Shown: positions 14,810 to 19,390 of the stretch, piece by piece
How the letters are laid out: each line of letters opens with the position of its first letter
Numbering within the stretch: position 1 is the first letter of the stretch
Source of the DNA: a virus
Taxonomy: Duplodnaviria > Caudoviricetes
Virus record (IMG/VR): IMGVR_UViG_3300027659_000206
Span: 1-24,205 of that record
Direction: 5' to 3' (one strand)
DNA length: 24,205 nt
Program-made: the position numbers and the translations under genes
Notes under the pieces: model-generated
The model's input: the letters and a program-made list of their open reading frames with translations, nothing else
Told to the model about the DNA's origin: nothing
Database searches by the model: none

Positions 14810-15340
14810 TTATTCGGCATCGCCAACCTCTTCAACGCCGTCACTAATCATGTCTCGCAGTCCAATCGTATATTTTTTCTTAATATGCGCAGCAAATGTA
14901 GTTTTAGTAAACACAGTTTCCCAAAATTCCTTTGTCATTGTTTGTGCCGCGCGGGTATTTCCAGTCAATTCAGTTTTTGTTGCGGGATCATAGGCGACAT
15001 ACCAACCATTTTTAGGCTTAATTACAAACCCCCCTTCCGTGGCAATATCAAGTAGGCCACTCCATTTTTGGACGCCACCTTCCCAACTTACGCTAATTGG
15101 AATCTTACTTTTTTCTTTTACAAACCGAGACTTTTCAACATTAATAATAAAGTGATACCCTTGGATTTCAGTGCCATCTTTATCTTGTTGACGACCAATA
15201 ATCCAAACATTGTCGGCACTATACATAATTCCGGTATTTGATACCACAAGCCCATTACTAAGAACATATTCATGATTTCCCGCAACGGTTATGTCATAGA
15301 CTTTTTTCTTACCTACTTTAGTTATTGATTTTAGTTTCAT
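14810..15340 (-). CDS. uvsX: Split intein C-fragment (35 aa) fused to the UvsX C-terminal extein (141 aa)
   Basis: MKLKSITKVGKKKVYDITVAGNHEYVLSNGLVVSN (blocks F/G) is followed by TGIMYSADNVWIIGR..NVEKSRFVKEKSK..SGLLDIA..KPKNGWY, which matches the C-terminal part of T4 UvsX. Confidence 0.93.
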   Translation of the reverse strand: MKLKSITKVGKKKVYDITVAGNHEYVLSNGLVVSNTGIMYSADNVWIIGRQQDKDGTEIQGYHFIINVEKSRFVKEKSKIPISVSWEGGVQKWSGLLDIATEGGFVIKPKNGWYVAYDPATKTELTGNTRAAQTMTKEFWETVFTKTTFAAHIKKKYTIGLRDMISDGVEEVGDAE

Positions 15341-16187
15341 TGTATATTTTTCTAATTTGATGCTTCGTTAAATTTAAATCGAGTTGAGCCTGACGTAATG
15401 ATTTGTATTCTTTTCCCTTTATTGTTATTCTTATTGCCTTTTTGCCCGTTTTTCTAATTTTTGATGAATCTATATAAACACCTGTTTCTTTATACTTACA
15501 GTTATCATTATGCCAACGAATAATGTTAGATAATCCTGTTGTCTTTAAACCACAATGTTTACATTCATATCTTTTTCCATTTTCTTTTACTGATAATGAA
15601 TATGGGTTGACCCATTCATCCATATTATATAATATTAAATCGGTTTTGTAAATACGAATTGTTTCATTTGTATGAATGTTTTTAAGCATCATCATACCTT
15701 TTCTCCCCATTTTCTTTTTCTGTTCTTCTGATTTTGGAACACCCTTAAATATAGCTGAAACTAATTTTTTATGTTCTTCGGTACAAATTCGACCTGAATT
15801 TTTTTCCGAAATTTTTCTTTTAGTTTCATCGCTATGTTTTTTACCATAAAAATTATTACCCGAACCTTTCATAGTTTCTTTTAATGCTTCAATATGAGCT
15901 TTTTTAGCAATTTCATATTGAGTAGTAGTTACATTTCTTTCTTGACCCGAACTGCATCTTAACATTGAAAAGAATGCATGTGCAAGTTGCGGTGTTCTAT
16001 AATGTTTCCACAATAACTGATGCGCTAAAAAATGTTCACGAAAAGATAATCTTATAATATTAGATTGATCATCATTTCCACCCAAACATCTTGGTATTAT
16101 ATGATGATTTTCACCGTATTCGGATTTACTTAATGGTGTATTTTTTCTTTTTTCGATTAAATTGTTGTATATTTTAATATGATCCAT
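15318..16187 (-). CDS. HNH homing endonuclease (Mob-like) with NUMOD3 and C-terminal CxxC module
   Basis: 289 aa. ENHHIIPRCLGG..N..L..REHFLAH (HNH), GNNFYGKKHSDETKRKIS (NUMOD3), CKHC..RWHNDNC. Visibly more AT-rich than uvsX. Confidence 0.92.
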   Translation of the reverse strand: MDHIKIYNNLIEKRKNTPLSKSEYGENHHIIPRCLGGNDDQSNIIRLSFREHFLAHQLLWKHYRTPQLAHAFFSMLRCSSGQERNVTTTQYEIAKKAHIEALKETMKGSGNNFYGKKHSDETKRKISEKNSGRICTEEHKKLVSAIFKGVPKSEEQKKKMGRKGMMMLKNIHTNETIRIYKTDLILYNMDEWVNPYSLSVKENGKRYECKHCGLKTTGLSNIIRWHNDNCKYKETGVYIDSSKIRKTGKKAIRITIKGKEYKSLRQAQLDLNLTKHQIRKIYNETKINN

Positions 16188-16222
16188 ATAACCTATTTAT
16201 ATAACAGATAACATCTGGATCA
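16180..16222 (-). promoter_or_regulatory. Late promoter TATAAATA (16194-16201) within a hairpin that would sequester the HNH start
   Basis: On the minus strand TGATCCA (16222-16216) pairs with TGGATCA (16186-16180, covering the AUG). An inner ATCTGTT/AATAGGT stem covers the AGGU. Confidence 0.7.
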
Positions 16223-16229
16223 AAATATT

Positions 16230-17141
16230 TTAAATAATGTCACATTCAATGCCAACGGTAAGATCCTGTGCTTGAACCCACTGACCATTAACAGCAAATG
16301 GGTGAGTATCAGAGCAAACAACCTTATGTCCATCTTCAAATTCCAATTCGTAACAATCTGGCTCTCCTTCCAACAGAGTATCCGGATCCCAAGTATGAGT
16401 GACATCTCGCACACCATCACGAGTAATCACAAGATCACCAACCACAATTTCATTAATTGGTTTATTGGTACCATCGGCAAAACGAACTAGTGTTCCTTCT
16501 TCAAAGCAGCCACCAGACACCACTGCTTTGCTAAACATTTCTTGAGTCTGATAGGTATGGTTAATTGCAAGAAGTGGAATGTTTTTCATTGTCAGGTATG
16601 GAGTTACCATACGAAACAATCCTTTGAGTGCTTTGGCGCGAGTCATATCGGCCACGCTCTTTTCATTCATTGCATCTTCCAATTCCTTCTTAGAAGCAAG
16701 GTTACCAACGCTGTCAATAACAATAATTACCTTGTCCTTACGCTCCATCTGCTCAAGCTGATTGACAATATCAAATTTGAGTTCTTCAATGTTTTTAATT
16801 GGAATATGCAGCACTCGTTTAGTGTCAATACCAAAGCTTTCAAAATATTGCTGAGGCGAACCAAATTCGCTATCATAAAACATAAGGCAAGCGTCTGGAT
16901 GTTTTTTGAGGTATGCACCTGCCATAAGCAGCGCAAAGCTCGTCTTAAAGTGCTTTGATGGACCAGCAAGTACTGTAAGACCACTTGTTAATCCGCCGTC
17001 AATACTGCCACTTAGTGCGACATTAACCATTGGTACGCTTGTACTGGTAATATCTTTTTCAGCATAAAAGTCGCTATCAGCGAGGACGTCGGCTTCTTTA
17101 ATTCGGCAATTCTTTTTTAGTTTTTCAAGTACAGATGACAT
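16230..17141 (-). CDS. uvsX: UvsX (RecA-like) N-terminal extein (211 aa) fused to a split intein N-fragment (92 aa)
   Basis: Walker A AGPSKHFKT, FYDSEFG, Walker B IVIDSVGNLAS, DMTRAK and INHTY, then GG|CFEEGTLV (block A), SDTHPF (block B), AQDLTVG, stop. Confidence 0.95.
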   Translation of the reverse strand: MSSVLEKLKKNCRIKEADVLADSDFYAEKDITSTSVPMVNVALSGSIDGGLTSGLTVLAGPSKHFKTSFALLMAGAYLKKHPDACLMFYDSEFGSPQQYFESFGIDTKRVLHIPIKNIEELKFDIVNQLEQMERKDKVIIVIDSVGNLASKKELEDAMNEKSVADMTRAKALKGLFRMVTPYLTMKNIPLLAINHTYQTQEMFSKAVVSGGCFEEGTLVRFADGTNKPINEIVVGDLVITRDGVRDVTHTWDPDTLLEGEPDCYELEFEDGHKVVCSDTHPFAVNGQWVQAQDLTVGIECDII

Positions 17142-19365: not shown

Positions 19366-19390
19366 GTAAAGTATTTATACCAAATACTAC
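19366..19390 (-). promoter_or_regulatory. Late promoter TATAAATA (19372-19379) within a hairpin upstream of the GIY-YIG gene
   Basis: Minus-strand AGTATTTG-GTA-TAAATACT stem-loop containing the exact late consensus, 6 nt before the ATG. Confidence 0.65.

Follow-up and report, generated by a model that had tools for sequence, protein, structure and literature searches.

A phage uvsX gene divided by a split-intein and homing-endonuclease cassette, with probable reconstitution of the recombinase by protein trans-splicing

The window analysed here is a stretch of 24,205 nucleotides (nt), positions 1 to 24,205 of IMG/VR record IMGVR_UViG_3300027659_000206, and is part of the genome of a T4-like virus (Duplodnaviria; Caudoviricetes); the runs that contain the greater part of it come from freshwater or lake metagenomes. 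Its gene order is T4-like, with the recombinase gene uvsX followed by a 2-oxoglutarate oxygenase gene, an open reading frame (ORF) at the gp40 position and the gp41 helicase gene. The uvsX locus, on the minus strand, consists of three ORFs. The first (17141-16230) encodes 303 amino acids (aa), comprising 211 aa of UvsX and a 92-aa amino-terminal intein fragment (IntN) that ends at a TAA stop codon. The second (16187-15318) encodes a 289-aa protein with HNH and NUMOD3 motifs, and the third (15340-14810) encodes 176 aa, a 35-aa carboxy-terminal intein fragment (IntC) followed by 141 aa of UvsX. The intein halves lie 889 nt apart in different reading frames, and the predicted spliced UvsX would be 352 aa long. 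An original prediction had described this two-ORF uvsX with an HNH gene between its parts, as well as a charge complementarity of the intein halves. The lengths and the 352-aa join agreed when recomputed, and a recount of charged residues (20 Asp/Glu against 5 Lys/Arg in IntN, 6 Lys against 2 Asp/Glu in IntC) gave the same values. The features of the locus are the following:

16509..17141, minus strand: UvsX N-extein, residues 1-211, with Walker A and B and the L1/L2 region up to a conserved Gly-Gly (GG); PHROG 97/8337, alignment to 3io5, up to 99% identity to intein-less alleles.
16230..16508, minus strand: IntN, 92 aa plus stop, with Cys1 (codon at 16508), block B Ser66-x-x-His69 (SDTH) and a net charge of -15; residue invariance, the gp41-1 intein as nearest solved relative, and the ratio of nonsynonymous to synonymous substitution rates (dN/dS).
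16180..16222, minus strand: predicted RNA hairpin pairing the HNH start codon; RNA folding, -14.2 kcal/mol.
16194..16201, minus strand: T4 late promoter TATAAATA, 6 nt upstream of the HNH start codon; motif match.
15318..16187, minus strand: MobE-like HNH homing endonuclease, 289 aa, with HNH, NUMOD3 and a CxxC...RWH module; PHROG 655, invariant motif, dN/dS 0.16.
15236..15340, minus strand: IntC, 35 aa, with its own Met, block F Asp16 and His23, terminal Ser34-Asn35 (...VSN) and a net charge of +4; TIGR01443, PDB match to Npu DnaE IntC.
14810..15235, minus strand: UvsX C-extein, 141 aa, beginning with the Thr+1 nucleophile; Pfam T4_UVSX_C, 3io5 from residue 187.

The uvsX exteins rejoin exactly at native sequence. 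Of 190 IMG/VR relatives found with the uvsX N-part, the best 80 were compared: the exteins directly abut in 66 loci and are split as in the window in the other 14; the intein-less alleles L018-L020 have an N-extein 99% identical to that of the window. When aligned to the solved UvsX chain 3io5, the N-extein covers residues 4-186 (E = 1.6e-73) and the C-extein begins at 187, with no gap. The earlier claim that joining the exteins restores native UvsX is borne out by both comparisons. The insertion site, after GG, is presumably the end of the RecA-type L2 region. In RecA, L2 has a role in binding single-stranded DNA (ssDNA), and earlier inteins have been located there (PMC3239194).

The search of IMG/VR for alleles at this site, another step that the original prediction had named, recovered intein-less, contiguous and split forms. 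Among the best 80 of 132 IMG/VR loci from a scan with the intein alignment, 71 are split and 6 contiguous, and 3 are ended by contig ends. A separate metagenome scan, which drew partly on the same contigs and misplaced the boundary automatically in 4 loci, yielded 71 loci (48 split, 7 contiguous, 16 ended by contig ends), for a combined total of 151 loci in overlapping sets. The break in the window is at the position of the endonuclease in the intein, since contiguous alleles join at the same point.

The same split occurs in cultured phages. Within the best 60 of 67 INPHARED matches to IntN, at least 25 records have an IntN of 45-50% identity inside uvsX, corresponding to at least 19 phages after 6 RefSeq duplicates are dropped. 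The IntC-bearing C-part is a separate gene in 18 of these phages, and also in EniLVp02. In all eight cultured phages inspected, the two uvsX parts flank an endonuclease gene or an unnamed ORF, and Cys1, His-Asn and Thr+1 are intact; among these eight a Hint domain is mentioned solely in the VmeM-32 record. PHROGs lists both halves as separate families (8337 and 18112). In the record of this Vibrio phage, vB_VmeM-32 (L002:1-2875), the DNA polymerase is likewise annotated in several pieces beside the split uvsX, and there is an IntC-like match at 2147-2230.

The intein halves retain the residues expected for splicing. A Cys directly after the same GG begins the intein in 80 of 80 intein-query loci, and IntC ends in Asn in all 71 split loci, where the +1 residue is Thr (69) or Ser (2). 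C1, S66 and H69 of IntN are invariant in 41 aligned alleles, M1, D16 and N35 of IntC in 36, and the window itself has the class 1 intein residues Cys1, block B His69, Asn35 and Thr+1. The net charge of IntN is negative in 71 of the 71 split loci and that of IntC positive in 56. IntC scores above the TIGR01443 cut-off (28.9 against 15.6 bits) and matches Npu DnaE IntC in a PDB search, and the best PDB sequence and fold matches of IntN are to the gp41-1 intein. A model predicted for IntN alone (predicted local distance difference test score 73; predicted template modelling score 0.44) has Hint domains at all top Foldseek ranks, with a best E value of 1.3e-3 (TM 0.61) and none at E ≤ 0.001.

Selection on the halves was estimated from 11 hand-picked pairs of alleles, which are partly non-independent and of which saturated pairs were left unscored. 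The dN/dS values range from 0.04 to 0.16 for IntN (9 of 11 pairs, the other 2 being saturated) and from 0 to 0.16 for IntC (7 of 11 pairs), comparable with those of the exteins; they are still low in scorable pairs having an endonuclease-less allele, and the pair closest to the window gives about 0.05 for exteins and intein. By this measure, strong purifying selection acts on each half of the intein.

Because the extein join is exact, the catalytic residues are invariant, the halves are under purifying selection, contiguous natural alleles exist and no intron was detected, the best reading of the locus appears to be a naturally split class 1 intein that would rebuild UvsX in trans. The uvsX gene would thus be split by an IntN/HNH/IntC cassette, and the two precursors are likely to bind through their opposite charges and to trans-splice to a 352-residue UvsX, a reading to which we give a probability of roughly 0.88. 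A single early transcript would supply both precursors, with IntC translated from its own Met inside the 3′ end of the HNH gene. After capture of the fragments by charge, IntN and IntC would make up one Hint domain, and class 1 splicing would follow through a Cys1 thioester, attack by Thr+1 and cyclisation of Asn35, with His23 acting in place of the penultimate His. The IntC start has no Shine-Dalgarno sequence, which is uninformative because just 3 of 24 window gene starts that were checked have a motif of this kind. Several late genes begin a few bases after TATAAATA, and this, together with the few Shine-Dalgarno motifs, suggests that the host of the phage may not rely on such pairing.

Several observations weigh against trans-splicing as described. 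The block B motif of the window is SxxH rather than TxxH, and IntN falls below every curated family cut-off, with only sub-threshold Hint matches in Pfam and NCBIfam. The penultimate His, which is kept in 64 of 71 split loci, is replaced by Ser in the lineage of the window (7 of 71), a point absent from the original prediction, and in the intein tree this lineage is set apart by the longest of the well-supported internal branches. The hairpin at the HNH start is just modestly better than shuffled sequences (z = -2.0; 7 of 200 shuffles equally good). Moreover, the metagenome locus L227 (2001-2030) has a stop codon at the expected intein start, and the N-extein of L120 (2365-3000) carries frameshifts; these may be non-functional copies or misassemblies, or they may indicate that the phage can do without splicing. 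As for the missing His, the IntC of the window has His23 at the block F position, as does that of Npu DnaE, which also ends in Ser-Asn, and by this analogy His23 could compensate.

The loss of the penultimate His in this lineage and the absence of Cys1 from L227 could also be accommodated if the intein halves served only to clamp the two chains tightly into a dimer, whether or not cleavage occurs, so that UvsX works unligated as two chains. Such an arrangement would suit a break at the end of a loop, and it has a precedent in phage Aeh1, whose NrdA is split without an intein and functions as two chains (PMC2677866). Nevertheless, Cys1, His69, Asp16, the terminal Asn and the +1 Thr/Ser are invariant in the aligned alleles, and a clamp would need none of them. 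In addition, a Hint domain retained on the L2 loop would likely block the ssDNA binding attributed to this loop (PMC3239194). We therefore consider a clamp improbable.

A different possibility is that the halves are rejoined at the RNA level, by a self-splicing intron or by ribosomal bypass over the HNH gene, to give a precursor that splices in cis. One relative, L121, has a group I intron in uvsX, and the RNA data are uninformative on transcripts: the single run contained 7% of the words, and its one contig, of 215 nt, lies within the HNH gene. However, Rfam scans for a group I or group II intron core gave nothing in the window at gathering score and no intron at E ≤ 10, whereas L121, the positive control for the same search, yields its intron at 77 bits. 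In addition, the reading frames of the halves differ, the spacer between them ranges from 35 to 2034 nt across loci and contains unrelated endonucleases, and the IntC Met is invariant in the 36 aligned alleles. Rejoining of the RNA is thus very improbable.

The locus could also be a pseudogene or an assembly chimera, with host RecA substituting for UvsX. Lesions are indeed present in 2 of the 151 loci of the overlapping sets (L120 and L227). On the other side stand the split in at least 19 cultured phages and the dN/dS of about 0.05 given above, as well as independent support for the assembly. Five other IMG/VR contigs (L088-L092) share the layout, with identities of 96% for IntN, 100% for IntC and 82% for HNH where compared. 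Logan contigs from three separate studies bridge uvsX-N, IntN and HNH (X2, X3 and X4) as well as HNH, IntC and uvsX-C (X3 and X4), although no single piece covers the entire split stretch; a run marked as a possible source of the window was set aside, and L012 (0 mismatches in 2332 nt) was treated as non-independent. The original prediction had pointed to read coverage across the split and to a chimera as its own possible undoing: independent contigs bridge both junction regions, and no chimera was seen. We regard a pseudogene or chimera as having hardly any likelihood, and return to a trans-spliced UvsX for what follows.

The protein encoded between the halves matches PHROG 655 (E = 8.5e-54), and its H28, H29, N43, H52 and H56 are invariant in 18 aligned sequences. 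In Pfam, NUMOD3 is above the cut-off and HNH below it. Its best phage matches lie beside nrdA or bear the name mobE, its gene has a guanine-plus-cytosine content of 28% against 40% for the exteins, and its dN/dS is 0.14-0.25 in four pairs. Matches to TATAAATA in the window all lie on the coding strand (8 of 8; 2.9 expected over both strands), and the last 23 nt of the HNH gene overlap the start of IntC. When 45 distinct split alleles were roughly sorted by motif, 25 had HNH, 6 GIY-YIG-like and 3 other endonucleases, and 11 had a remnant only. The late promoter TATAAATA is present in 24 of 34 endonuclease-bearing distinct alleles and in none of the 11 without an endonuclease, and the endonuclease gene overlaps IntC in 20 of 33 distinct split alleles. 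The start codon of the endonuclease is fully or partly paired in the predicted hairpins of 11 of 12 chosen loci, including the window's own copy, in folds made without a shuffle control.

These signals suggest how the cassette might be expressed and spread. Early in infection, the hairpin would silence HNH by blocking its translation from the uvsX transcript, and later the gene would be expressed from the late promoter. The enzyme would cut uvsX genes that lack the cassette and may spare its own allele; in a mixed infection, cleavage of an intein-less uvsX would be followed by repair that copies the entire 1.27-kilobase cassette. The intein would render the insertion harmless and the endonuclease would render it mobile.

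Movement of the cassette is evident when alleles are compared. Between L139 and L155, 98-100% of the intein nucleotides are identical, against 79% and 74% for the exteins, and inteins of the window type occur on three separate extein branches. L010 and L013 have N-exteins 95-96% identical to that of the window, yet their inteins are only about 52% like the window's. As judged from such sequence comparisons, the cassette moves between uvsX genes. From -1000 to +400, the differences between the split allele L007 and the empty allele L025 are confined to positions -1 and +3 of the site and 6 others, as would be expected for recent homing with short co-conversion. Alternatively, the cassette may have been lost by recombination; the direction, gain or loss, is not proven by this pair, which is a further point to set against the proposed scheme.

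One intein family, nearly identical in its intein throughout, is found in four states: with a 732-nt spacer and HNH (L155, L166), with spacers of 52 nt (L157, L158, L161) or 36 nt (L185), and as an in-frame fusion (L139-L141, L180-L182). The fused allele has a 9-nt linker identical to the 9 nt that immediately precede IntC in the split allele; there they belong to the HNH reading frame, and related HNH genes conserve them. Because the linker corresponds to sequence encoding the HNH 3′ end, the mini-intein of the L139 family most likely arose from a split form. The IntC Met is kept in 3 of 5 distinct contiguous alleles. A careful tree needs 3 changes for the three IMG/VR contiguous alleles, but this re-fusion is the only firm case because the approximately unbiased test does not reject a single clade of contiguous alleles (p = 0.149). 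L184 looks like a recombinant.

In L039 (2092-5463) and L040, uvsX is in three pieces, since a second split intein in Walker A is present in addition to the L2 split. This Walker A intein has a 12-aa N-fragment and a 128-aa C-fragment, with a 425-aa, probably Vsr-like endonuclease between them; a PDB search with the L039 Walker A IntC matched no intein and so gave no link to VidaL. L134 (796-2510) is from another, second lineage that has the two inteins together, with a first piece that runs off the contig, and L169-L171 have the Walker A split only. We lean slightly toward the broader view that the uvsX site displays a whole, reversible split-intein life cycle, which would comprise a homing cassette, swaps of endonuclease family, stepwise endonuclease loss and re-fusion to a mini-intein, with some phages carrying a second, orthogonal split in Walker A and making a three-chain UvsX via two trans-splicings.

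In Walker A, the gp41 helicase encoded in the window is interrupted by a contiguous mini-intein of 136 aa (13327-12920, minus strand), which retains Cys1, His-Asn and Thr+1 and has no endonuclease. Just upstream of uvsX (20159-17197, minus strand) lie genes for a thymidylate synthase-like protein (PHROG 160), a small hydrolase-like protein and a 346-aa protein of PHROG 14998; T4-like phages keep DNA-modification genes in the region upstream of uvsX. A free-standing GIY-YIG/NUMOD3 endonuclease gene (19365-18736, minus strand) directly follows the thymidylate synthase-like gene and is preceded by TATAAATA at 19372-19379. The group I intron of L121 (1092-1384; RF00028) is in the L2-coding region just upstream of a split intein in the same uvsX, and the endonuclease ORF there is 579 aa long.

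This is probably not the first split intein to be described in UvsX. An atypically but naturally split VidaL UvsX-2 intein with a short N-fragment was reportedly described by Neugebauer et al. in 2017 (Biol Chem 398:57); the citation, and a 16-aa N-fragment in a VidaL intein, were confirmed. Our literature search turned up no article describing a split intein at this position of uvsX, within a coverage that excluded most subscription journals and all supplements, including those of Dassa 2009 and of split-intein screens. The novelty suggested by the original prediction is nonetheless overstated: the same split is already in GenBank, in the cultured phages noted above and mostly unannotated as an intein, and its architecture is that of the class described by Dassa 2009. 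What is added here is the movement of the cassette between uvsX genes, an allele family in which deletion of the endonuclease leads to re-fusion, and a UvsX made in three pieces in two lineages.

Most fractured genes have been described from metagenome fragments, whereas the uvsX split is also in cultured phages, some of them coliphages, such as ELT1 and SYGD1, for which E. coli K-12 is the listed host. Therefore, trans-splicing during infection, homing of the cassette and the need for ligation are genetically testable. The findings also correct the annotation of databases that list the halves as two recombinases, and for protein engineering the family is a source of dozens of varied canonical split-intein pairs that have a Thr+1 junction. 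The allele series is also relevant to the question of whether splitting is irreversible in intein evolution.

Among known systems, the closest are the fractured genes of Dassa 2009 (gp41-1, gp41-8, IMPDH-1, NrdJ-1 and NrdA-2), in which a host N-part with an IntN of 88-105 aa, a free-standing endonuclease, and an IntC of 33-54 aa with the host C-part follow one another (PMC2677866). As the original prediction had proposed, the window falls in this class; it agrees with it in its two-ORF host gene with fragments of 92 and 35 aa, in the 5′ hairpin, the TATAAATA before the endonuclease, the 3′ overlap with the downstream gene and the opposite charges, and in the existence of endonuclease-less derivatives like gp41-7. 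It differs in that UvsX, in the passages of that article covered here, is named just as a neighbor of gp41 and is here the host, and in that the endonuclease is HNH, which was only predicted there alongside the GIY-YIG and Vsr-like enzymes found. The model, in its section 16, includes endonuclease loss and in-frame endonuclease capture, without a return from endonuclease loss to a contiguous mini-intein.

Other systems share individual traits with the window. The 92-aa IntN does not fit the VidaL type, with N-fragments of about 15-30 aa, whereas the second intein of L039/L040 (12 aa) does. Npu and Ssp DnaE and gp41-1 (6qaz) have the same canonical split point with an acidic N- and a basic C-fragment, and Npu DnaE likewise lacks the penultimate His. 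Nevertheless, identity to DnaE and gp41-1 is about 26%, the window has Thr+1, and the DnaE halves are unlinked, without an intervening endonuclease. Aeh1 nrdA/mobE and the T4 MobE HNH family resemble the window in having a MobE-like HNH gene inside a host gene, a late promoter and a translational hairpin, although Aeh1 nrdA is free of inteins and its product functions as two chains (PMC2677866). Finally, the M. leprae RecA intein and the I-Bth0305I intron mark the L2 region of the RecA family as an insertion hot spot (PMC3239194), but in these cases recA carries a contiguous intein or a group I intron, and the insertion in the window is a split-intein cassette in uvsX.

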